In this document: positions 1-10,653 of the stretch, one piece after another
Layout: each line of letters opens with the position of its first letter
Position numbering within the stretch: position 1 is the stretch's first letter
Virus genome (UHGV): UHGV-0142489
Origin: a virus
DNA length: 16,164 nucleotides
Reading direction: 5' to 3' (one strand)
Notes under the pieces: generated by a model
Told to the model about the DNA's origin: nothing
Seen by the model: only the letters and a program-made list of their open reading frames with translations
Databases searched by the model: none
Translations under genes and position numbers: made by a program

Positions 1-140
1 TGATTGAAATCAAAATAACGATGGGTTTATTATTACCAAAATGGTAAATTTACAACCCATTCCCATTGTGCCATAGTAATCGGGCACTGGCAAAATCCAG
101 TGCCGGGATTGGCGTCCTGGGTTACTACAGAGGCACATAT

Positions 141-160
141 GCCGCATAAGCGGTTTTTTT
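141..160 (+). terminator. Weak candidate intrinsic terminator at the extreme 5' end of the window
   Basis: 4-bp GC stem ccgc(142-145)/gcgg(150-153) with ataa loop, followed by seven consecutive T (154-160). The stem is short, so this is weak; it would end a transcript arriving from upstream of the window. Confidence 0.3.
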
Positions 161-313
161 ATGTGTAAAGCGCACCTATTCTATGGTGGGCTGTGTGGGG
201 GCACCGAAAGGTGCGCCGGGTCCTTTGTAGCCGGTTACGCCAACCCTGCACAGTTCACCACCAACCGATTGGCGTCGGTAGTGGTGATTAACCTAACTAC
301 AAAGGTGATCACT

Positions 314-1000
314 ATGAGTGCTAACGTAACCCCATCTGTTTTTCATTTTGAATCAGAAGCAACCATTCGAGCCATTGTTATTGATGGAAATCCTTGGTTT
401 GTTGCCAAAGACGTTATTAAAGCTCTTCAACTGACAAACCCCACTATGTCAATAAAATCTCTTGATGATGATGAAAGGGCTAAATTTAACTTAGGCCGTC
501 AAGGCGAAACCAATATTATCAACGAGTCAGGCCTCTACACACTGATCCTCCGCTGCCGCGACGCAGTGACACCAGGCACTATCCCCTACCGCTTTCGTAA
601 ATGGGTTACAGGTGAGGTTCTTCCTCAGATCCGCCGCACCGGAAGTTACATTAAAAACTCGCTCCCGCAGGAAGAACGCATAAAGATGGTTGCCGACCAG
701 GTAGCCAACGCCACAGCATCAGCAGTGATGCAGGCAATCAAGATAGAGAACAAAACCTACAGCGCCCCACTGAAGCCCGGCTACCGCAGCCTGATTCACT
801 CGCCGTCTGGTGTTCTCGGCCTGACGGAAAACTCACTGCTGATGAATCTGCTGAACCAGTTACAGGAAGACGGGCACGATGTATCGGGCGCGGCGGCGGA
901 GCTGACCACCATGTTCTGTTACATCGTTGGTGTGAGCAAATGCCTGCGTGATATCCAGACGCACGCGGAGTACATCAACGACAAGGCAGGGTTCTTCTGA
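314..1000 (+). CDS. Bro-N domain protein (phage antirepressor / KilA-type family), 228 aa
   Basis: ORF-track frame 161..1000 trimmed to the ATG at 314, which has an AAAGGTGA Shine-Dalgarno at 301-308 with a 5-nt spacer. The N-terminal ~110 aa (FHFESEATIRAIVIDGNPWFVAKDVIKAL ... GLYTLILRC ... RKWVTGEVLPQIRRTGSY) fit the Bro-N domain pattern, which normally starts within the first 10 residues. The C-terminal half is not recognised. Confidence 0.8.
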   Translation: MSANVTPSVFHFESEATIRAIVIDGNPWFVAKDVIKALQLTNPTMSIKSLDDDERAKFNLGRQGETNIINESGLYTLILRCRDAVTPGTIPYRFRKWVTGEVLPQIRRTGSYIKNSLPQEERIKMVADQVANATASAVMQAIKIENKTYSAPLKPGYRSLIHSPSGVLGLTENSLLMNLLNQLQEDGHDVSGAAAELTTMFCYIVGVSKCLRDIQTHAEYINDKAGFF

Positions 1001-1042
1001 CGGCGGCGGCACAGGGATGTGCCTTTAAATAATTCTGTACGA

Positions 1043-1101
1043 TTGCAGACCGGGGGTGAATAGCGTACTATTACCTTAAAGGTAAACCATGTGTTTACAT
1101 G
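1043..1101 (+). promoter_or_regulatory. Candidate sigma70-like promoter with two adjacent palindromes (possible operator) upstream of the 69-aa gene
   Basis: TTGCAG (1043-1048), 17-bp spacer, TACTAT (1066-1071). Perfect 7-bp inverted repeat TTACCTT-a-AAGGTAA (1071-1085) begins at the end of the -10. Second palindrome CATGT-gttt-ACATG (1088-1101) abuts the GAGGAGGAG ribosome-binding site (1101-1109). Confidence 0.3.
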
Positions 1102-1111
1102 AGGAGGAGAT

Positions 1112-1321
1112 ATGGGATTTTGGTTCGCTCGTACAAAAACGAGGGATAATGCACCCAGCCCTCAGGCAAAAAATGCAGAAGTTCCGGCGTCAGCGCAGGT
1201 TAACAAGCGTGGTGGTGTGTATATCTCATCACAGCAAATTTCTGAGCTTCCTGAGGTTAAGGAGATGCGTCGTCTCGCTGCTGCAATCGTTAAACAGGAT
1301 CTTGCCACTGTAAGGAAATAG
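1112..1321 (+). CDS. Small hypothetical protein, 69 aa, soluble
   Basis: ATG at 1112 preceded by an exceptionally strong Shine-Dalgarno GAGGAGGAG (1101-1109). Balanced, hydrophilic composition. TAG stop (1319-1321) overlaps the GTG start of the next gene by 1 nt. A hand-counted 100-nt sample (1141-1240) has 50 G+C, like the phage backbone. Confidence 0.65.
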   Translation: MGFWFARTKTRDNAPSPQAKNAEVPASAQVNKRGGVYISSQQISELPEVKEMRRLAAAIVKQDLATVRK

Positions 1322-2184
1322 TGTTGTTAGCTCTTCTAATTATCCCCATTCTGGTTAGTGGTTATATTATGATAACCGCTAACCAGTATCATTATTTCCG
1401 TTTATACCGACATGAAGGCCAGCTTCTTTATATGAAAGTAGCTGCATTAGGTACATATTGCCTTGTTGCTTCGGTAATAATTGCCGCATTTATAAAATAT
1501 AAATATCCTGATTTTCACCTAGTTCACGATATGGTGGAAACTTTTAATGTAACGTCAAAACCAGAAACAGATAGAATTTACATGTGGCTACTTCTTCTGT
1601 CAGTCACATCAATTTGCTTCTCTTTGTGTTATGTATCTTTTGTTTGGCTAAAAGATCTTCTTTTAGGTTGTTTTTATAAACGTGATATTTATGACAAAAT
1701 ATCAGAGGCAATGAAAGCTAGGGTATTGCGAAAAACGTACTCCCAGGGTTCTTTAGATTTGCTATTGCTTGATGCAATCGAATCAGATCCTAAGAAACCA
1801 ATGTTAATTACTTTATCATCAAATAAAGTATACGTTGGAATAATAAATGGTTCTGGTGAGCCAACGGAAAATCAAGGGCCACACCAACACATATCTTTTG
1901 TTCCTTTAATGTCAGGGTACAGAAACAAAGAAAATTTATCTGTTACATTTACAAACGCTTACCCAGGTGAAATCCAAATTAAGCGCAGTGCTGCGATAAA
2001 AGGGATAAGCAAAAAGAAAGTTCAAGGTCTAGAAATTATGGTATCTATAGACGAAATAAGTCATATATCATGGTTTGACTTTGAAGTATATAAGGCAACA
2101 AATAACAAAGTAGAAACAAAGGGGCATGTTGTTAATGTGACCAAAAATGGTCGCAACATATACTACAGAAGTGGCAGGAAATAA
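1321..2184 (+). CDS. Hypothetical membrane protein, 287 aa: three N-terminal TM helices plus ~175-aa cytoplasmic domain of unknown function
   Basis: GTG start at 1321 with AAGGA (1312-1316) upstream. Hydrophobic segments LLALLIIPILVSGYIMI, VAALGTYCLVASVIIAAFI and MWLLLLSVTSICFSLCYVSFVWL, followed by a basic stretch (KDLLLGCFYKRDIYDK), which by the positive-inside rule places the C-terminal domain in the cytoplasm. AT-rich (38 G+C in 1321-1420, hand count). An alternative start at ATG 1366 would delete the first helix. Confidence 0.7.
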   Translation: MLLALLIIPILVSGYIMITANQYHYFRLYRHEGQLLYMKVAALGTYCLVASVIIAAFIKYKYPDFHLVHDMVETFNVTSKPETDRIYMWLLLLSVTSICFSLCYVSFVWLKDLLLGCFYKRDIYDKISEAMKARVLRKTYSQGSLDLLLLDAIESDPKKPMLITLSSNKVYVGIINGSGEPTENQGPHQHISFVPLMSGYRNKENLSVTFTNAYPGEIQIKRSAAIKGISKKKVQGLEIMVSIDEISHISWFDFEVYKATNNKVETKGHVVNVTKNGRNIYYRSGRK

Positions 2185-2209
2185 ATTTTACGCAGTTTAG
2201 GTGGCTTAT

Positions 2210-2713
2210 ATGGATAATACTATCTTAGGCGCATTGATAGGTGCAGTTATTGCTATAGTTTCCACTTATATAAATGCAAGACAAGGATACAAAAACAGCA
2301 TAAGATTAGAGCGACAAAAAATATTAAGGGATAAACGCGAGCAATTATTTATAAATTGTATACTTGCTGAAAAAGTCATAAATTCAAGCGCAATTACCAT
2401 TCTCAATTTTGTAAAAAATGCCAGATACCACTCTGATAGTAAATTTGACGTATCAAGAGCGAATCCGTTGCAAACGATGGAAATGCTAATAAACATATAC
2501 CTTCCTGAGTATAAAAAAGAATTACAAGAACTCAATAATGCGTATCAAGAATTTCACAAATACTACTCTCAATATACATGTGCACATACCTTCAAAAATA
2601 TGCCTGATAATGAGAAGTCGAAGTTTATTGAGGAGGCTGATTTTTATGCAAAAAAGATATATGGCAAACTTAATGATATTAAGGACAAGATATCATTTAA
2701 CTCAATAGTATAA
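2210..2713 (+). CDS. Hypothetical membrane-anchored protein, 167 aa: single N-terminal TM helix plus helical K/E/N/Y-rich cytoplasmic domain
   Basis: ORF-track frame 2201..2713 begins at a GTG that is part of the AGGTGG Shine-Dalgarno (2199-2204); the in-frame ATG at 2210 sits 5 nt downstream and is the likelier start. TM segment ILGALIGAVIAIVSTYI followed by basic NARQGYKNSIRLERQKILRDKREQ. Very AT-rich (34 G+C in 2221-2320, hand count). Confidence 0.7.
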   Translation: MDNTILGALIGAVIAIVSTYINARQGYKNSIRLERQKILRDKREQLFINCILAEKVINSSAITILNFVKNARYHSDSKFDVSRANPLQTMEMLINIYLPEYKKELQELNNAYQEFHKYYSQYTCAHTFKNMPDNEKSKFIEEADFYAKKIYGKLNDIKDKISFNSIV

Positions 2714-2788
2714 CAGCGATACTGCCGCTGACGGCTCCCGCTGCGGTGGGCGTTCTGCGGATTCCCGCCCGGGCGGCGGTGGCATTCG

Positions 2789-2815
2789 TTAAAAACAAGG
2801 CCGCGAAAGCGGCCT
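2789..2815 (-). terminator. Intrinsic terminator closing the minus-strand virion operon
   Basis: Perfect 7-bp GC-rich stem AGGCCGC/GCGGCCT with GAAA tetraloop (plus-strand 2798-2815). On the minus strand the hairpin is followed directly by TGTTTTTAAC. It lies 9 nt downstream of the TGA stop of the 98-aa gene (2824-2826). Confidence 0.65.
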
Positions 2816-2823
2816 GTGACATG

Positions 2824-3120
2824 TCACGTTCCTTTTCTGAATGATAGCCGTTCGAAAAATGATGACATTCCACCGCAGACAATAGCAAAGATGATCCCAC
2901 CAAAGAAGAGAAGGCCAGCCTGCCACCACTCCCACCGCCATACATCCACAGCACCAACCATACCAACAATCGCTCCAACAAATGGAATATAGCTCACGAT
3001 GAAAGCAATGGGGGCTGCAATTATCCAGTGCAATCCCCACCATGATTCAAGCCCAGCCATAATTGCTGCCAACTGAAAAAGGCCAACGACGATATAAACA
3101 ATGAATCCTATCGCTTGCAT
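2824..3120 (-). CDS. Small integral membrane protein, 98 aa, three TM helices (holin-like topology or exclusion/immunity protein)
   Basis: ATG at 3120 with AGGTGA Shine-Dalgarno. Three hydrophobic helices separated by Trp-rich loops (ESWWGLHW, DVWRWEWWQ) and a short basic C-terminal tail (ERLSFRKGT). Last gene before the operon terminator. The two overlapping alternative-frame ORFs in the track were not chosen. Confidence 0.7.
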   Translation of the reverse strand: MQAIGFIVYIVVGLFQLAAIMAGLESWWGLHWIIAAPIAFIVSYIPFVGAIVGMVGAVDVWRWEWWQAGLLFFGGIIFAIVCGGMSSFFERLSFRKGT

Positions 3121-3132
3121 GTAGTCACCTAT

Positions 3133-3306
3133 TTACCCAGTAAAAATCAGAGGCCTCCCCTCAATAAGGCTTGCAACAAGAACTATTCCCTGCACAACAA
3201 AGATGAACCAGCAAATAGCTTGAGTCTGAGGGTTAAGAAAATATTTGTAGCGGTCAATAAATAACAACCCACCAGAAATTATCACACTCAAAATAATTAA
3301 AAACAC
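3133..3306 (-). CDS. Possible small two-TM membrane protein, 57 aa (not in the supplied ORF track)
   Basis: My own translation of the minus strand: GTG at 3306-3304 preceded by AAGGAAG, reading (M)FLIILSVIISGGLLFIDRYKYFLNPQTQAICWFIFVVQGIVLVASLIEGRPLIFTG and ending at TAA 3135-3133. No ATG is present in the frame, and AT-rich DNA gives hydrophobic codons by chance, so confidence is low. Confidence 0.3.
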   Translation of the reverse strand: MFLIILSVIISGGLLFIDRYKYFLNPQTQAICWFIFVVQGIVLVASLIEGRPLIFTG

Positions 3307-3315
3307 AACACTTCC

Positions 3316-5790
3316 TTATTGCGGAGTGACATCCTGAGGTCGCCACCAGTATGTCTGATTAAACTCTTTCTTCGAACGTTGCTCCATTTTACGCAAATAG
3401 CCTGGTGAAAAATACTCCTGCATCTGGTTAAAGATCATATGATCGAGAGCCGCCTTTAAGTACCAGAGATTCGCACCTGGCATCAAACCTTTCCCCAGCT
3501 TCACCAGATCACCACCAGTCTGCTCACTCTTCCCTTCCACAGCATTTAACGGTATGCCCTGAGCAATCTTCACTACGTCATCAACCAGACCAGCTACCGG
3601 GCCAAGCATCGACGCCAGCGCGCCGCTTCCGTACCTAGTGTGATCTGACAATAAAAAGTCACCGTAAAGGCCAAGGCCACCACCTTTCAGTAGAGCACCA
3701 AGCCAGAATTTTGCGGCACCTTCTCCTGTCATCTCTCGAGGATTACGACCAGACGCAAGGTCGTTAAGTTGCTGCGACAAAGCGCCAAGAATGGTCGTAC
3801 TGGCAATAAACGTCGCAATATATGCCGCACGCCCACCAGCAGACGGCATACCCATAGCGCGTGACCAGTGACGCATAACAACCGAGATAGGGAACGATTT
3901 AAACAGGAAAACACTTCTCGTTAATTCACCTTTCCATGTTCCACGCTGAATACCAGAACCGGTTATCAGTTGCTCACGTGCTCCCGGTGTAATAATAGCC
4001 ATATCAACTTCTTCAGTTACGGCACCGAGCAGTTTACGCATTGCCTCAAATTTCACTCGTTCAGGCTCACCAAGATGTTTAACTGCTGAATCAGGGATAC
4101 GCATAATGCTTTCCGGTGTCAGCATCGTATTATTACCGTTCCCCCAGTCCTCCTGTTGCGCCAGCTTCCATACGTTCCAGTCTGTGTCAGTAATCCCTTT
4201 GCTTTTCAGGATACGAAAATCAGAGTCATCGAGGCTACGAAGGTCTGGTGTCCGTGACACTACTTCTCCCAGGCTTCCCATCATGGTTACGCCATAGGCG
4301 CGCTTGTGCGCATCTGACCATGCTGTAAGCCCACTGGCACGCATTACGGCCGTTGCCGCCCAACGAGACACTGACGGCCCCATATTATCCATCGCCCAGC
4401 GGTTAACGCTGCCAAGTAGAGATTCCATCGCCAGACCAGCGCGGCGCGCCCGCGCAAGTTCTGTACGGTTCGTTGGGTCCATAGCTTCAAGCTGGTTGCG
4501 GAATAACTGGTTCATTGGAAGGTTGGTAACCTTCGCAGACAGATACATGGTTCCAAGATCAGAGAACGATGACAGCAACGCGGATCCGAGTCTGCTGGCA
4601 ACCAGCCAGTTGCGGATATTGTCAGACCATCGCGCGATGTGCGGATTCGCTACAGGCTGTGTCTTTCCAGAAATAAAGTTGTACAGATTCTCTGTGTTGT
4701 TCGCCAGCCGCTCGACTTTACCGGTTTTACTCGGGTTAGCTGTTGCCGTTTCTGCCTTAACCTGATCAAGAAGAGAGCGGAAAACATGATCGGGGTTTGG
4801 GCCATATGTTTCCACCAGCGCAATATCTTTACTGATACCTTCCAGGTGACCGACCATGATTTCCCATAGAGAGCGATCGCCATAAAGTTGCTGATATTGC
4901 AGATAGGAATCTGCATCTTTGAAATGTATCTGTCGTGATGCATTACCACGGTTAGCACGCACGCCGGAAATTCGCATTCCGGTATCAGTAAGCTTATTCA
5001 GCCCACCAGTAGCGATCGTGTTATAAGCCTCTCCAAGAAATGCAGACAACTCGGCATCGTTCATCAGTTGCCCATCGGCTCGGGTATAATATTTGCGATC
5101 CAGCTTACCTATAACATCGCTAACCCATTTATCTTTTGATACCGCCCCAACCTTTTCCATAGAATGATGTTGAGGGATCCCCCAGTTTTCGAGATAGCCA
5201 ATGTCCCCACCAGCATCATTAAACCGGCGGCGCAGTAGATCTGTCACTTCTCTCCACGCCTTAGCACCTTTTCTTGCTTTAGCATTGCCAGTATTTTGCC
5301 CTCGCATTTCATATACCAGGTCACGCACGCCCGCTTCATCTTCAAACAGACTAAAAAAGCGAGGATCAACTGCTTCGAATGCCTCCTGCAATCGACTCAA
5401 TGCATAATCACGGGTGGCTTTTGTTCTGGATTCAACAGAGAGGAAATTCGATTTACCGTCTGCATTAAAAGCAATAGTACGGTTAAGAGCGCCAAGTTTC
5501 CCATCAGCCCCTTGATAGCTATTGATAAATTTATCCAATCTCTGACGTGCGGCTATAGTGAGGGCCACACGACGTTTCTTTAATGCCGCTTCTCGCTGTA
5601 ATTCTTCAGATGCCAATTGTGCTGCTCGATATAGCCGCTCTGATTCGGAAAGTTGTCGCCACGAGATCGGGTCATCACGAGCAATGGAGCGCATATTTCG
5701 ATAAATGCGGTCTTCAATGTTCTGTATTTCTCGCGCCGTTAAAGTGCGCTGCGCCGCCTGCTGGACCGCTTGTATACATTCCTGTCTCAT
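3316..5790 (-). CDS. Large internal virion / ejection protein, 824 aa
   Basis: ATG at 5790, 5 nt after the stop of the upstream gene. Long, largely helical-looking protein with hydrophobic stretches near the C-terminus (AAYIATFIASTTILGAL, GAAKFWLGALLKGGGLGLYGDFLL). Its position after the tail tubular genes matches the internal core/ejection proteins of T7-type podoviruses. No tail-fibre-like repeats. Confidence 0.75.
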   Translation of the reverse strand: MRQECIQAVQQAAQRTLTAREIQNIEDRIYRNMRSIARDDPISWRQLSESERLYRAAQLASEELQREAALKKRRVALTIAARQRLDKFINSYQGADGKLGALNRTIAFNADGKSNFLSVESRTKATRDYALSRLQEAFEAVDPRFFSLFEDEAGVRDLVYEMRGQNTGNAKARKGAKAWREVTDLLRRRFNDAGGDIGYLENWGIPQHHSMEKVGAVSKDKWVSDVIGKLDRKYYTRADGQLMNDAELSAFLGEAYNTIATGGLNKLTDTGMRISGVRANRGNASRQIHFKDADSYLQYQQLYGDRSLWEIMVGHLEGISKDIALVETYGPNPDHVFRSLLDQVKAETATANPSKTGKVERLANNTENLYNFISGKTQPVANPHIARWSDNIRNWLVASRLGSALLSSFSDLGTMYLSAKVTNLPMNQLFRNQLEAMDPTNRTELARARRAGLAMESLLGSVNRWAMDNMGPSVSRWAATAVMRASGLTAWSDAHKRAYGVTMMGSLGEVVSRTPDLRSLDDSDFRILKSKGITDTDWNVWKLAQQEDWGNGNNTMLTPESIMRIPDSAVKHLGEPERVKFEAMRKLLGAVTEEVDMAIITPGAREQLITGSGIQRGTWKGELTRSVFLFKSFPISVVMRHWSRAMGMPSAGGRAAYIATFIASTTILGALSQQLNDLASGRNPREMTGEGAAKFWLGALLKGGGLGLYGDFLLSDHTRYGSGALASMLGPVAGLVDDVVKIAQGIPLNAVEGKSEQTGGDLVKLGKGLMPGANLWYLKAALDHMIFNQMQEYFSPGYLRKMEQRSKKEFNQTYWWRPQDVTPQ

Positions 5791-5795
5791 TTAAT

Positions 5796-7598
5796 TTAAC
5801 CTCTCAAGAAACACGCCACAGCGACATCAAACAGGCTGGAATCCTGTATTGCCTGCTCACTTTCCCTGTTCGCTTCATCCAGTACTTCACGCGCACTGCG
5901 CGATTGTGGATTACCATCATCATCCAGCACGGTGATTATCATGTCAGGTGATTCAAGCAGCGAGTCTTCAGCTATGCGCAGATCAATATCTCCTGCCTTA
6001 TCTGACATCATTTTTTGTTCTGCCTGTTGCAATATTTTATCAGGCTCAAAAGGAGCTACTTCGTCTGGCGTCCTGACCTCTGCTGTTTTATAGAATGAAA
6101 CAGCCTGAGCATTAAGTTCACTTTCTGCCTGCTGTCTCCGAGCCAGTTCTGCTCGAGCTTCAAAAAGCTGACCGCCAGGCTCGTGCGGTGCCAACGCGTT
6201 ACGGGAAAATTCCAGGCGTTCTTGTGCCTGCCGGATTCGTTGATCAATATCGCGAAGTCTGGCCTGTTTATCTGATCGAGCACGAGACAAAGCTTTACCG
6301 CTACCGGTTGGCTCTTCTGCAAGAATTTGTGCACGCTGTTCAGTGAGATTTTCAATAATTCGTTGGCTATTAGCGATTTCAGACTGGTAAACCTGTCTAT
6401 CTCCACGCGGCAAAAGCTGCGCGGCCTGTTCTTCAAGCAACCGATTTTCTATAGCACGCGCCGTTACTCCATCATCTACAGATGACAGAGCCTCATTAAC
6501 TGCCTGAGACAGCAGACTCTTGCGCCCAGGAATTTCACTGAAAGATGCAGACTCAACAATGCTGGCAACGTCTACAGGTCTCCCCTGGCTAACATCAGAC
6601 ATAGCTTTTCGCAGAGCCTGAATGTGAGAATTGCGCGAAAGCACGTTGATCGGCACGCCGGGCGCAATATCAATTTCAGCATGATGAGCGGCATTCGCCG
6701 CCAGTGCAGCATCGATATCAACTGGTGAAAAATTTGGTGCGTTTGTAGACTCGCCGCGAGAGTTAATAAATCTGCCGACACCACCAAACGCCACCCCAAG
6801 AACAGCATCAATAGCAATTGCCTGTCGATCCAACACATCATACTGGTTAGCCATTTCGCTATAGCCACCATCACGAAGTGTTTTTGCAGTAAGCCCACGC
6901 TGTGCCATACCGAACGCAATATTTGTACCTGCGGCATAGGCAATATCTGGCGTTGCACGTACTGCTGTTGCTGCGGCGCGTCGCACTGAACTCTCACCCG
7001 TCCGCGCAAGCTGAGCCGCCACACCTTCCGCCAGCGCACCACCAGCACGTAACCCGAGGCTCATAGGGATCAGTGTTCCGGCACCAGCAGTAATGCCCTG
7101 CACTAATCCCGCTTCCTGCGCCGTCCTGAAATCAACACCCTGTGCTGTCAGCCGTTCAAACTCAGAAAAACCCTGTAGCGAAGTTACCGCCGCCGCACCT
7201 CCGACAGGACCACCGAGCGTTGTACCGACAACAGCCTGCCCGCCCATATCGAACAACCCATAAAGAACCTGCCCGGCGGTTCCGGTTGTCGCGGCATCAG
7301 GCGTCAGCCGCTTAACCTGCTGCTCTGCTAGTTTTCTCTGCTCGGCAATGTATGAAACTGAAGTATCATTGAGCGAGGTGTTTTCGTTAATAAACTGAGC
7401 AATCGGGGATACGATTTTATCCATCCCTGCCCATAGCAACTGATCTGGCTTTGCCACCAGCCCGGAGTACAAACCAGACAATGCCGCTCCTACAGCATTG
7501 TCGAAAAAACCAACATCGCTGTTAAAGCCCGCTGGATTTGATGCTGCTTCGTCAAGTTGCTGATTCTGGTTTACTGGATTAAGGCCAAAGTAACTCAT
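5796..7598 (-). CDS. Internal virion protein, 600 aa, with Gly/Ala-rich N-terminal third
   Basis: ATG at 7598 overlaps the TGA of the upstream gene (ATGA, 4-nt overlap). Gly/Ala-rich low-complexity segments (GTTLGGPVGGAAAVTSL, GITAGAGTLIPMSLGLRAGGALAEGVAAQLARTG) followed by a charged, coiled-coil-like C-terminal half. Confidence 0.75.
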   Translation of the reverse strand: MSYFGLNPVNQNQQLDEAASNPAGFNSDVGFFDNAVGAALSGLYSGLVAKPDQLLWAGMDKIVSPIAQFINENTSLNDTSVSYIAEQRKLAEQQVKRLTPDAATTGTAGQVLYGLFDMGGQAVVGTTLGGPVGGAAAVTSLQGFSEFERLTAQGVDFRTAQEAGLVQGITAGAGTLIPMSLGLRAGGALAEGVAAQLARTGESSVRRAAATAVRATPDIAYAAGTNIAFGMAQRGLTAKTLRDGGYSEMANQYDVLDRQAIAIDAVLGVAFGGVGRFINSRGESTNAPNFSPVDIDAALAANAAHHAEIDIAPGVPINVLSRNSHIQALRKAMSDVSQGRPVDVASIVESASFSEIPGRKSLLSQAVNEALSSVDDGVTARAIENRLLEEQAAQLLPRGDRQVYQSEIANSQRIIENLTEQRAQILAEEPTGSGKALSRARSDKQARLRDIDQRIRQAQERLEFSRNALAPHEPGGQLFEARAELARRQQAESELNAQAVSFYKTAEVRTPDEVAPFEPDKILQQAEQKMMSDKAGDIDLRIAEDSLLESPDMIITVLDDDGNPQSRSAREVLDEANRESEQAIQDSSLFDVAVACFLRG

Positions 7599-10108
7599 TG
7601 CGGAATATCTCCGGAGAATCTCTGACGCTTCTGTGTCAGATCAAGAACAACAGGAGAACCATCATCTTTCAGCAGATAACCAGTACCAAGTTTCACCAGG
7701 TACTGACTATCGCCGTAACTTTGCAAACCATACTGACCAGGCGGTGTTTTTATCCCGGTGCCGACCACTTGTTCATTCCAAGCCTGATTAACCTGCTTAT
7801 CGAATTGCTCTGCAGACATTCCCCACGGCAAAAGGACATTCCCCATTCCGTTATAGTCATGCACGCCACCTGTAGCTACGTTAACAGCCTGCTTCCAGAT
7901 ATCAGTGTCAATTTCGCCTGATATCACGCCTTTTTTCGCCATCACACCAGCGTAATAGTCCTTTGCGATCTCGTATGCCATTGATGCCCCCTGAGCATCA
8001 CCAGCAAATGCATCCTTCACCATGTCAGAAAACTCAAGGCGAAGATCAGCATCTTTAGGCATCGGAATACCTTTCGCATCATCAGTACCTTTACGAGCCG
8101 CCGCGCCAGTAAGAATTGTCTGCGCAGCGGTTTCAGGAGACACGGAAACATCCGGATTAAACCAGTTTTTTTCTGCCAAAATACCACCAGGCTTGTCCAT
8201 CAGTATCCCGGCAACGGCAGCAGATGGAGCGTTGGCACTGATCTGCTGTAGTGCTGACATATACACCTGCCCACCACCAGTGCTCTGCCTGATGGTATCG
8301 AGATATGCTGCCTGTTGGGAAACTGGAGCATCACGAAAGAAAACACCGATCTGATTGGCCTCGTCTTTGGAAAAGAACGTCAGTGGAGTGCCATATGACT
8401 TAGCAAGGTCACTGACCTGAGCAGCACGCAAGGCAACGCTCTGTCCAAAGTTATCCTTATTGCTCATGTCGATAGGCTTTGCCTGTCCGGCGGCAAGAGA
8501 GAACTGTACAGGATCAGCCTGTCGCTGCTTTATCACCTGACTTGCAGCCGACACAACGTTGTCATAAAGAGCGGCTCGTGCCGCATAACCCTCCCCTGTC
8601 TCACCAGTATCCGGGCGTAATTGCTCAACATATGCTGTAATGCTGCTTGTCGGCATGTTGCGGAAAGAGCCTATATACTGTCCGGCGATTTGCGTATTTC
8701 TGAACTCGGTATATCGCAGGTTTCCTTCTCTGACTCCATAAGCTGCAATAAAATCAGCCTCACCAGGTGGGTTAGGAAATTCAACGCCCCGCATATACGC
8801 AGCTGTCGCATCGCGAACCTTGCTGTCAATCATCGTTTTATATTCAGCCTGCTGCTGCCGACGCAGTTGATCCGCCTGTCGCATAAAACTTGCCTGCGCC
8901 TCAGGAGATGCCGCATCGAATGCTGCATTACCGGTATAGCGTTTGGTGTTGGTTGGAATTGTTGATAAACCAAGTGCTGCACTGACACCAGCAGTTAACT
9001 GCTGATCACTGTATGGCTGGCTACCGTTCTCATGATGGATAATGGCTGCACAAAGCGCCTTCAGGGTATCAGGATTTGATGCATCGAGAGGCTCATCAGC
9101 AGAAACGCCAAGTTGTTCGCACACTGCTTTGATATACGACATAGTGTCATTTTTATCAGTAGGCGGTGCCCAGCGATTAATTATCTCGCTGACGGTATCA
9201 ATACCCTGCCGCTGATACGACATCAGGTTCCGCCCTAATGCACGAATCCCGTGTTCAGGTGTTTCGAATTTAGCAAATCTACCATCATCACCGGTCTGGC
9301 CTACCCACGGATTAGTTTTGCTGTATTCGAGATTTCCGGGGTTATTGTTGCGTATGCCACGGACACGCTCGGAAGAGCCACTATCTGTTACAGCACGGCG
9401 AGCTCCAGCAGCAGTATCACTTAACTCGCCATTACTTTGGATGAATGCGGTCGCATTGTTTGCCGACCACTGGGACAATGCTGCATCAGCAACCTTCTCT
9501 TTAAACTCGATTTTCTTGGTCTGTATTTGCTCGTCGCTCCAGCCATGTGCAGCACCGTACTCCTCAATTTGCTGGAAAGTTTGCTTATTAGCCAATACGT
9601 ATGCGGCATTGTCGCCATACAATGCTGCGGCATTTTTACCATTGTTCAGCAGCGTCGCCTGAAACTGACCTTCTTCGTAGGCATTAATTTGCCCTATCTC
9701 GTGCCGCCCGGCCTGCGTAGTGAACTGAATGCGCTGCTGCTGCGCCTGCTGCATGAAAGCATTACGAGCCTGTTCATCCGGCAGCGACATAGCCAGTTGT
9801 TCGACCTGAGCATCAAACTGCTGCGTATACTCATGGCCTTTTCCAATAGCATTTTTCCCTTTCAGGTTAAGCAAACCTGTTTCAGGGTTATTCAGCAGAT
9901 CACTGCTTATCTGACTGAGGTTAAGAGATGCCTCCTGAGCCAGAGCGATATTGGCACGCTGTTTTGCCTGCCCCAAAACATCAATTGCCTCTGTCCCTGC
10001 CCGAACAAAAGCATCACCAATACCTGGCTGAGAAAACGTCTGCAAGCCTGCTGACTGAACTCCACGGCTCTCAACCTGGCGTCCGGATACTGTTGGTACG
10101 ACTGGCAT
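7595..10108 (-). CDS. Large internal virion protein, 837 aa
   Basis: ORF-track frame 7595..10183 trimmed to the ATG at 10108, which has GGAGG 6 nt upstream and overlaps the TAA of the upstream gene by 1 nt (TAATG). The longer form would overlap the upstream gene by 76 nt. Contains a conserved-looking block GIRNNNPGNLEYSKTNPWVGQTGDDGRFAKFETPEHGIRALGRNL (residues ~250-295). Confidence 0.75.
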   Translation of the reverse strand: MPVVPTVSGRQVESRGVQSAGLQTFSQPGIGDAFVRAGTEAIDVLGQAKQRANIALAQEASLNLSQISSDLLNNPETGLLNLKGKNAIGKGHEYTQQFDAQVEQLAMSLPDEQARNAFMQQAQQQRIQFTTQAGRHEIGQINAYEEGQFQATLLNNGKNAAALYGDNAAYVLANKQTFQQIEEYGAAHGWSDEQIQTKKIEFKEKVADAALSQWSANNATAFIQSNGELSDTAAGARRAVTDSGSSERVRGIRNNNPGNLEYSKTNPWVGQTGDDGRFAKFETPEHGIRALGRNLMSYQRQGIDTVSEIINRWAPPTDKNDTMSYIKAVCEQLGVSADEPLDASNPDTLKALCAAIIHHENGSQPYSDQQLTAGVSAALGLSTIPTNTKRYTGNAAFDAASPEAQASFMRQADQLRRQQQAEYKTMIDSKVRDATAAYMRGVEFPNPPGEADFIAAYGVREGNLRYTEFRNTQIAGQYIGSFRNMPTSSITAYVEQLRPDTGETGEGYAARAALYDNVVSAASQVIKQRQADPVQFSLAAGQAKPIDMSNKDNFGQSVALRAAQVSDLAKSYGTPLTFFSKDEANQIGVFFRDAPVSQQAAYLDTIRQSTGGGQVYMSALQQISANAPSAAVAGILMDKPGGILAEKNWFNPDVSVSPETAAQTILTGAAARKGTDDAKGIPMPKDADLRLEFSDMVKDAFAGDAQGASMAYEIAKDYYAGVMAKKGVISGEIDTDIWKQAVNVATGGVHDYNGMGNVLLPWGMSAEQFDKQVNQAWNEQVVGTGIKTPPGQYGLQSYGDSQYLVKLGTGYLLKDDGSPVVLDLTQKRQRFSGDIPQ

Positions 10109-10653
10109 TATAATCCTCCGGGTAATCTGGTTCCTGCTGCTGCCCCGATTGGCGCAGGGGTGCTTTGAGTAAACGGACTCCACGTCCCACCAAACATCTG
10201 GTACGCACCGTATGCCTTCAGAGGCGCAGTGAGCAATGTTGTTGCTGCTCCCACATTCCCCTGTTTACGGGCTGAACTGGCTTCTGCTTTATAGTTGGCA
10301 GCCTGAACCTGATAACCGTAAGCCTCGCGTTGCGCGTTATTCACCGTCGTCAGCGAATCAAGAGCGCCAAACTGAGCAGTGTCACCAAATATATCCAGCG
10401 CGTTACCGGTAGATAAATCAGCGCCGGTAGCCCCCATTGTCGCCGCCTGTGTACCAAGCCGCTGTCGGGTCTCTCTGCGCCGTTGCTCAGCTTCAGCGTT
10501 ACCCCTGTTTATTGCATCATTTGCCTGAGCTGTGGCTATATCTGCGTTCGCTTCTGCAACCTTCGAGGCATACTTTCCCTGTTGGTACTGGGTGTATGCC
10601 TGAATGCCACTCATGGCGAGCATTGCGCCACCAGCAATAACCGGATCGCACAT
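10108..10653 (-). CDS. Internal virion protein, 181 aa
   Basis: ATG at 10653 with GGAGAG upstream, overlapping the TAA of the upstream gene (TAATG). Ala/Gln-rich with a hydrophobic N-terminus (VIAGGAMLAMSGI). Size and position resemble T7 gp14-type core proteins. Confidence 0.7.
   Translation of the reverse strand: MCDPVIAGGAMLAMSGIQAYTQYQQGKYASKVAEANADIATAQANDAINRGNAEAEQRRRETRQRLGTQAATMGATGADLSTGNALDIFGDTAQFGALDSLTTVNNAQREAYGYQVQAANYKAEASSARKQGNVGAATTLLTAPLKAYGAYQMFGGTWSPFTQSTPAPIGAAAGTRLPGGL

Follow-up and report, generated by a model that had tools for sequence, protein, structure and literature searches.

A predicted Enc34-type peptidoglycan hydrolase module within a large virion protein of an epsilon15/phiV10-like podovirus

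UHGV virus genome UHGV-0142489 encodes, within the 16,164-nucleotide stretch that we analyzed (the window), an 837-residue virion protein, and the question that this locus raises is what a single ordered, motif-bearing block in this protein is and what it does for the phage. An initial annotation, made from the sequence alone, placed the block at positions 9014-9367, suggested an enzymatic or cell-wall-binding module, likened it to the transglycosylase of T7 gp16, and could not name a family. The family can now be named: as judged from sequence comparisons and a predicted structure, the block is a real, separately folding enzyme module of the Enc34-type endolysin catalytic family (CDD PHA02564, PM2 P5-like).

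The window is the late structural region, on the minus strand, of an epsilon15/phiV10-like temperate podovirus (genus Uetakevirus). The gene that carries the block is as follows:

7595..10108, minus strand: 837-residue virion protein gene (open reading frame [ORF] and translation), orthologue of phiV10 gp18 (PhiV10p18) and epsilon15 gp15

This segment was 98.2% identical in DNA sequence to phiV10 and ~75% identical to the epsilon15-type Salmonella phages, and the encoded protein was 59% identical to epsilon15 gp15. RefSeq labels PhiV10p18 a "head protein," with a noted similarity to the PM2 structural protein P5, and the updated epsilon15 GenBank record (AY150271.2) calls gp15 a "putative lytic transglycosylase," based on an HHpred hit to 4anr_A (SltB).

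RESULTS

Assignment of the block to the Enc34-type family

Positions 9014-9367 (minus strand) translate to RVRGIRNNNPGNLEYSK...AAIIHHENGSQP, 118 residues that correspond to residues 248 to 365 of the 837-residue ORF; the translated block reads RVRGIRNNNPGN...HHENGSQP. When the module was compared by phmmer with 7Q47_A, the Enc34 endolysin's catalytic domain, residues 248 to 367 were matched (E = 3e-17), and the closest solved relative of the module was chain L of 9VVP, "Gp29," a protein of 1295 residues (E = 5e-38). A 64-sequence profile matched 7Q47 at E = 7e-43, and another profile search against PDB did so at 1.5e-41.

The predicted structure led to the same family. The AlphaFold model of residues 230 to 404 had a predicted local distance difference test score (pLDDT) of 85, with a core above 90, and the only significant matches to this model in a Foldseek search of PDB were chains A and B of 7Q47 (E = 3e-11; probability, 1.0; template modeling [TM] score, 0.67 to 0.74). 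The module thus has, by AlphaFold prediction rather than by a solved structure, the all-helical, six-helix fold that resembles the alpha-lobe of lysozyme. In BFVD, Foldseek matches carried the labels "virion protein," "internal virion protein D," and "tail-fiber/lysozyme," and in PHROGs the block is a mobile module common to families labelled head protein, endolysin, tape measure protein, and "tail injection transglycosylase."

Neither the block nor the whole protein gave a match when scanned against Pfam and NCBIfam, even at E values of up to 1. The initial annotation had pointed to a search of domain libraries and to Foldseek as the ways to a family; Pfam supplied none, and the name came instead from the profile match to 7Q47 (PHA02564) and from the hydrolase fold. 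The missing Pfam and NCBIfam match reflects a gap in these libraries and not a missing domain.

Conservation and extent of the module

Conservation in the 837-residue protein is highest in the block and exceeds chance there. Mean per-residue identity was 0.58 across residues 248 to 380, versus 0.21 for residues 1 to 247 and 0.26 for residues 381 to 837, in an alignment of 14 full-length homologues (20 to 56% identical overall) that were retrieved with the domain profile and are therefore biased towards the domain. This alignment was built from representatives of the domain-profile search and not from near-identical prophage matches; with the full-length protein as the query, the 120 matches listed were all near-identical proteins of E. 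coli prophages. The ordered, conserved-looking block of the initial annotation was thus borne out, as was its start, apart from a shift of one in the numbering (the glutamate of "ERVRG" is residue 247). Its end was placed too early:

8969..9367, minus strand: predicted Enc34-type (PHA02564/PM2 P5-like) peptidoglycan hydrolase domain, residues 248 to 380 (phmmer, profile, AlphaFold/Foldseek, and conservation peak)

The true end of the domain lies at about residue 380 (window position 8969), such that positions 9014-9367 cover its first 118 residues. The last helix of the domain, residues 368 to 378, falls outside the block, and Y366, G374, and A378 are conserved in this added stretch.

The surroundings had been described as low in complexity. 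In composition they are, since alanine, glutamine, glycine, and serine together make up 0.40 to 0.47 of the flanks versus 0.23 to 0.30 of the block, and sequence entropy per 40 residues was 3.4 to 3.7 bits in the flanks versus 4.0 to 4.1 bits in the block. The view of the flanks as low-complexity or disordered segments was nevertheless rejected, because AlphaFold predicts long helices there with good confidence (pLDDT, 80 to 90). The sole segment near the domain that is predicted to be disordered is the linker at residues 234 to 252 (pLDDT below 50); on the other side, residues ~379 to 394, between the last helix of the domain and the next helix, lack regular secondary structure in the full-length model. 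The predicted layout of the protein is accordingly a disordered N terminus, a helical region (residues 30 to 226), the linker, the enzyme module (~248 to 380), and a second helical region (395 to 826). The full-length model had a pLDDT of 78 and a predicted TM score of 0.47. No hydrophobic or transmembrane segment was found in the 837-residue protein (maximum Kyte-Doolittle value over 19 residues, 1.02), and a PDB profile search with its full-length alignment gave no match for the N- and C-terminal regions.

A variant of the protein was also observed. In many E. coli prophages it is 935 residues long, with an insertion of ~98 residues exactly at the N-terminal boundary of the module (residues ~243 to 347 of the variant). 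The site corresponds to residues ~242 to 250 of the window protein (window positions ~9359-9385), inside the predicted disordered linker. Apart from phrog_19413, a family of unknown function (6e-5), the insert had no match, and no Pfam family exceeded the threshold.

Proposed catalytic residues

Alignment to 7Q47 identified counterparts of the residues proposed to act in Enc34, and their conservation was scored in 156 domains taken from clusters that are at most 50% identical:

9332..9361, minus strand: RGIRNNNPGN family motif, residues 250 to 259, at the start of the domain (in Enc34, the loop region before helix alpha2); defined by conservation in the 156 domains
9170..9172, minus strand: W313, counterpart of Enc34 Trp79, an aromatic residue for which a role in substrate positioning has been proposed (W in 141 of the 156 domains and Y in 14)
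9134..9136, minus strand: Y325, counterpart of Enc34 Tyr95 (Y in 151 of the 156)
9029..9031, minus strand: E360 in the HHENG motif, counterpart of Enc34 Glu131 and proposed catalytic acid (E in all 156)

Within the family motif, N256 and N259 were invariant, and R250, G251, R253, N254, N255, P257, and G258 were at least 93% conserved. E360 was also invariant in a second alignment of homologues.

The biochemistry of the family comes from two endolysins. The study of Enc34 assigns the family to CDD PHA02564, describes the domain as all-helical and similar to the lysozyme alpha-lobe, with a helix order permuted relative to GH73 and GH23, and puts forward Glu131 as catalytic, together with Trp79 and Tyr95 (PMC8943055). 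On its own, the domain (ORF39deltaC) lyses E. coli, P. aeruginosa, and H. alvei whose outer membrane has been permeabilised, and the authors argue for N-acetylglucosaminidase activity, the closest structural relative that they name being a GH73 N-acetylglucosaminidase (PMC8943055). The M4Lys domain degrades purified peptidoglycan and removes N-acetylglucosamine (GlcNAc) from muropeptides, an activity shown for M4LysdeltaTMD (PMC7143992). In addition, PM2 P5 has been modelled on 7Q47 and reinterpreted as a lysin. Of the two functions suggested by the initial annotation, enzymatic and cell-wall binding, the first is thus favoured by the 7Q47 match, the fold, the W/Y/E signature, and the muralytic relatives; nothing favours mere binding.

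Replacement of the SLT domain in gp16

The 9VVP protein Gp29 is a Kayfunavirus gp16 ("internal virion protein D"); we found no publication for 9VVP. Comparison of the gp16 genes of CLB_P1 (positions 4456-8340 of its record) and T7 (3596-7549) revealed a domain swap. The two proteins are 53% identical from residues 125 and 152, respectively, to the C terminus (~1170 residues), whereas the first ~124 residues of CLB_P1 gp16 are an Enc34-type module and T7 gp16 has a Pfam SLT domain at residues 15 to 127 (1.7e-31). When the module profile was aligned to the T7 gp16 SLT domain by hhalign, the probability was 0.3%. Since a non-homologous module occupies the same slot of an orthologous gp16, there is good evidence that the module does the job of SLT. 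The likeness to T7 gp16 noted from the sequence therefore stands as an analogy, the module replacing SLT in Kayfunavirus gp16; membership in the SLT family does not stand, given the lack of a Pfam match and this hhalign result.

A putative role at entry

We consider it quite likely, from sequence and predicted structure, that residues ~248 to 380 are a virion-borne peptidoglycan glycosidase that acts at entry in this epsilon15/phiV10-like podovirus; the catalytic activity of this copy, its action at entry, and its place in the virion are what we infer. The module would be an all-helical glycosidase that folds independently, flanked by helical regions and joined to the N-terminal one by a flexible linker. 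Upon infection, the 837-residue protein would be delivered from the virion to the periplasm, where local cleavage of glycan strands by the module would let the trans-envelope DNA channel through the murein layer. The general acid would be E360, the sugar being held in position by Y325 and W313. The module would thereby do what the SLT domain of gp16 does in T7, and lysis at the end of infection would be left to a separate holin-endolysin-spanin cassette. For the bond that is cut, N-acetylglucosaminidase activity is the published proposal for the Enc34 family (PMC8943055).

The neighboring genes bear on this proposal:

10108..10653, minus strand: 181-residue T7 gp14 homologue, orthologue of epsilon15 gp14 (Pfam PF24072 T7_gp14, 31.2 bits with a cut-off of 27; phrog_418 "internal virion protein," 1e-72)
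5796..7598, minus strand: 600-residue downstream gene product, orthologue of epsilon15 gp16 (phrog_1145); ATGA overlap, translationally coupled to the 837-residue gene
3316..5790, minus strand: 824-residue virion structural protein (the counterpart by orthology of epsilon15 gp17), encoded by the final large gene in this block of genes (phrog_684 "virion structural protein"; phiV10p20 annotation)

The ATG at 10108 is the likely start of the 837-residue ORF; it has a GGAGGA Shine-Dalgarno sequence upstream and shares bases with the stop codon of the gene before it (TAATG), and the stop codon of the ORF overlaps the start of the next gene (ATGA). The gene thus sits right after a T7_gp14-family gene in a late structural operon, which is the slot of gp15 in T7. 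T7 gp14 is an ejection protein that forms an outer-membrane pore, and the order of a gp14 homologue followed by genes for large virion proteins is the layout of the podovirus ejection-protein operon (PMC8954989). Movement of peptidoglycan hydrolase modules between ejection proteins of the gp15 and gp16 types has been described before (PMC8954989). The 600-residue downstream protein has one strongly hydrophobic segment, residues 260 to 279. With Foldseek, the full-length model of the 837-residue protein weakly matched the T7 gp15 chains 6yt5_A and 7k5c_A (probability, 0.96 and 0.93; TM score, 0.13 to 0.17). Since the module is internal to a soluble virion protein in a structural operon, the role that we propose is entry and not lysis. 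Furthermore, phiV10 has separate holin, endolysin, and Rz/Rz1 genes; given this cassette of its own, the module would not be needed for lysis.

Several points weigh against a glycosidase that acts at entry. In Enc34, E131, Y95, and W79 were given their catalytic roles by structural superposition and not by mutagenesis (PMC8943055). With respect to bond specificity, the M4Lys data suggested endopeptidase activity besides glucosaminidase activity (PMC7143992), whereas the epsilon15 gp15 record names a lytic transglycosylase. With hhalign, T7 gp15 matched the whole 837-residue protein at a probability of only 0.05%, and the likeness in fold noted above is weak, such that the resemblance of the protein to T7 gp15 rests mainly on synteny. 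The holin-endolysin-spanin cassette was seen in phiV10 and not in the window, one review gives gp17 as the sole protein of the epsilon15 core, and the module may be dispensable under standard conditions.

Guichard et al. reportedly placed epsilon15 gp15, in 2013, in the central tube of the adsorption apparatus. A paper citing Guichard 2013 lists gp15 in the packaging/injection device, which is inconsistent with the review that gives the core to gp17; what these sources say on the epsilon15 orthologue is indirect. A location in the core and one in the tail hub are both compatible with a virion-borne enzyme acting at entry. No zymogram data for epsilon15 virions were found in the literature. As an aside, one published table lists "Epsilon15 gp11 229 aa / gp12 499 aa / gp13 708 aa" as the homologues of gp14, gp15, and gp16 (PMC8954989); these sizes clash with the epsilon15 GenBank record (gp14, ~180 residues; gp15, 842 residues), and the assignment in the table looks mistaken.

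Alternative readings of the module

With respect to chemistry, it is conceivable, and we suggest it tentatively, that the Enc34/P5-type module (>13,000 clusters at 50% identity) differs from the lytic transglycosylases and lysozymes so far linked to podovirus entry in being an N-acetylglucosaminidase, possibly with an added endopeptidase activity as in M4Lys. In that case, the epsilon15/phiV10-like phages and the Kayfunaviruses would open the murein by means of a glucosaminidase, one that repeatedly took the place of SLT domains in ejection proteins.

An alternative that we regard as unlikely is that the module is an SLT/SltB-type (GH23/GH103) lytic transglycosylase, which, like T7 gp16, would cleave between N-acetylmuramic acid (MurNAc) and GlcNAc non-hydrolytically to leave 1,6-anhydroMurNAc. 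E360 is the lone invariant carboxylate that stands out among the conserved positions, and a single catalytic carboxylate is usual for lytic transglycosylases. The module also fills the SLT slot in gp16, AY150271.2 annotates gp15 in this way from 4anr_A, and Enc34 distantly resembles the GH23 proteins phiKZ gp144 and MltC, with a superimposable catalytic glutamate (PMC8943055). Nevertheless, neither SLT nor any other Pfam family was matched, the hhalign probability with T7 SLT was negligible, no lytic transglycosylase was among the sequence or Foldseek matches in PDB, and the SltB annotation obtained with HHpred was not reproduced by the PDB profile search. The nearest structural relative according to the Enc34 authors is, moreover, a GH73 N-acetylglucosaminidase, the helix order being permuted with respect to both GH23 and GH73 (PMC8943055), and what M4Lys removed from muropeptides was GlcNAc (PMC7143992).

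It is considerably less probable that the module is a relic without catalytic activity, kept in the virion protein just for peptidoglycan binding or as a structural spacer. The Enc34 authors obtained no sugar-bound complex (PMC8943055), which would fit such a relic, but the glutamate is invariant and the tyrosine and tryptophan are at least 90% conserved in the 156 diverged domains, including those within large virion proteins; the module is the most conserved part of its protein; and the relatives with the same signature, Enc34 and M4Lys, are active. Hardly credible is an endolysin that acts at the end of infection, as in Enc34 and the chi-like phages: the characterised family members are endolysins and PHROGs that bear the module are labelled "endolysin," but here the module lies mid-chain in an 837-residue protein encoded in a structural operon beside a gp14 homologue, and the near-identical phiV10 has a separate lysis cassette.

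Distribution of the module

A profile search of 1.84 billion cluster representatives (50% identity) identified 19,195 proteins with the module at E ≤ 1e-3 and 13,590 at E ≤ 1e-10. Among the best 150 of these plus the query, the module was internal to a longer protein in 54, N-terminal in 37, stand-alone (200 residues or less) in 35, and C-terminal in 25. The family of the 837-residue protein itself is large, a single 90%-identity cluster holding 4311 member sequences. In annotated phages, the module was found in 816 records, the carriers including Uetakevirus gp15, Kayfunavirus gp16, structural proteins of MP38-related Pseudomonas phages, and chi-like endolysins; other carriers were corticovirus- and autolykivirus-like P5 proteins and microviruses. 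Labels on module-bearing proteins include head protein, tape measure, tail injection transglycosylase, and internal virion protein D. A type VI secretion system effector domain has also been likened to 7Q47.

Chromosomal proteins of Leclercia spp. (~250 to 290 residues) carry the module at the C terminus (e.g., residues 113 to 265 of 281), behind an N-terminal extension of ~110 residues. They could be prophage lysins or secreted effectors.

A low-GC island in the window

Apart from the virion genes, the window holds an island of low G+C content at positions 1001-3000 (38 to 39%, versus 47 to 58% elsewhere). It contains two plus-strand ORFs, at 1321-2184 (287 residues) and 2201-2713 (170 residues), neither of which gave a match in Pfam and PADLOC scans, and no phage record covers more than 43% of window positions 1-3315. 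The island looks like a cargo ("moron") slot between a Bro-N gene (161-1000) and the virion-protein genes.

DISCUSSION

With our assignment, a protein present in thousands of E. coli and Salmonella prophages, labelled until now "head protein," "hypothetical protein," or "putative lytic transglycosylase," is placed in a specific family and gains a proposed catalytic residue (E360) as well as domain boundaries fit for expression. The assignment also exposes a curation gap: for a domain with 19,195 representatives and one crystal structure, there is no Pfam-A or NCBIfam model, and automated labels are therefore "hypothetical," "head protein," and "capsid and scaffold."

That the protein bears a peptidoglycan hydrolase was already implied by existing labels, namely, "endolysin" in PHROG, "putative lytic transglycosylase" in GenBank, and "internal virion protein with endolysin domain" for Kayfunavirus gp16. 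In the open-access literature, we found no link between the Enc34/7Q47/M4Lys family and podovirus ejection or internal virion proteins or Uetakevirus. Within that literature, the family assignment, the named catalytic residues, and the exchange of SLT for an Enc34-type module in gp16 seem not to have been pointed out, although each is a routine inference. Finding such a module is expected biology and leaves the understanding of phage entry unchanged. The replacement of SLT in orthologous gp16 proteins does support the view of ejection proteins as mosaics that accept any murein-cutting module.

How, then, does the window protein compare with known systems? With the catalytic domains of Enc34 ORF39 and BSPM4 M4Lys, the module shares ~36% identity over ~120 to 160 residues, the predicted all-helical fold, the N-terminal RGIRNNNPGN motif, and the W/Y/E signature. 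It differs from both in being internal to an 837-residue soluble virion protein encoded in a structural operon, and Enc34 has a transmembrane segment, which the window protein lacks. The window protein thus has the Enc34 catalytic domain but is not an Enc34-type endolysin. PM2 P5 and the P5-like lysins of Vinavirales/Autolykiviridae are stand-alone homologues of ~140 residues with the W/Y/E signature, and P5 is likewise a virion component; PM2 P5 is, however, a single-domain protein of tailless, membrane-containing phages and not a module of a large podovirus protein. In SP6/K1E gp35-36 and phiKMV gp36, as in the window protein, the peptidoglycan hydrolase is on the gp15-position protein instead of gp16, although the activity is described as that of a lysozyme (PMC8954989).

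Another counterpart is Kayfunavirus gp16 (9VVP Gp29 and CLB_P1 gp16), which is also a podovirus virion/ejection protein bearing an Enc34-type module. There, the module is N-terminal on a 1295-residue homologue of T7 gp16, whereas in the window it is internal (residues 248 to 380) to a gp15-position protein, and outside the module the two proteins have no sequence relationship. Finally, the module has no detectable sequence or profile similarity to the T7 gp16 SLT domain, from which it also differs in Pfam status and probably in chemistry, yet the two are interchangeable at one gp16 position and would share the job of local murein cleavage in ejection.

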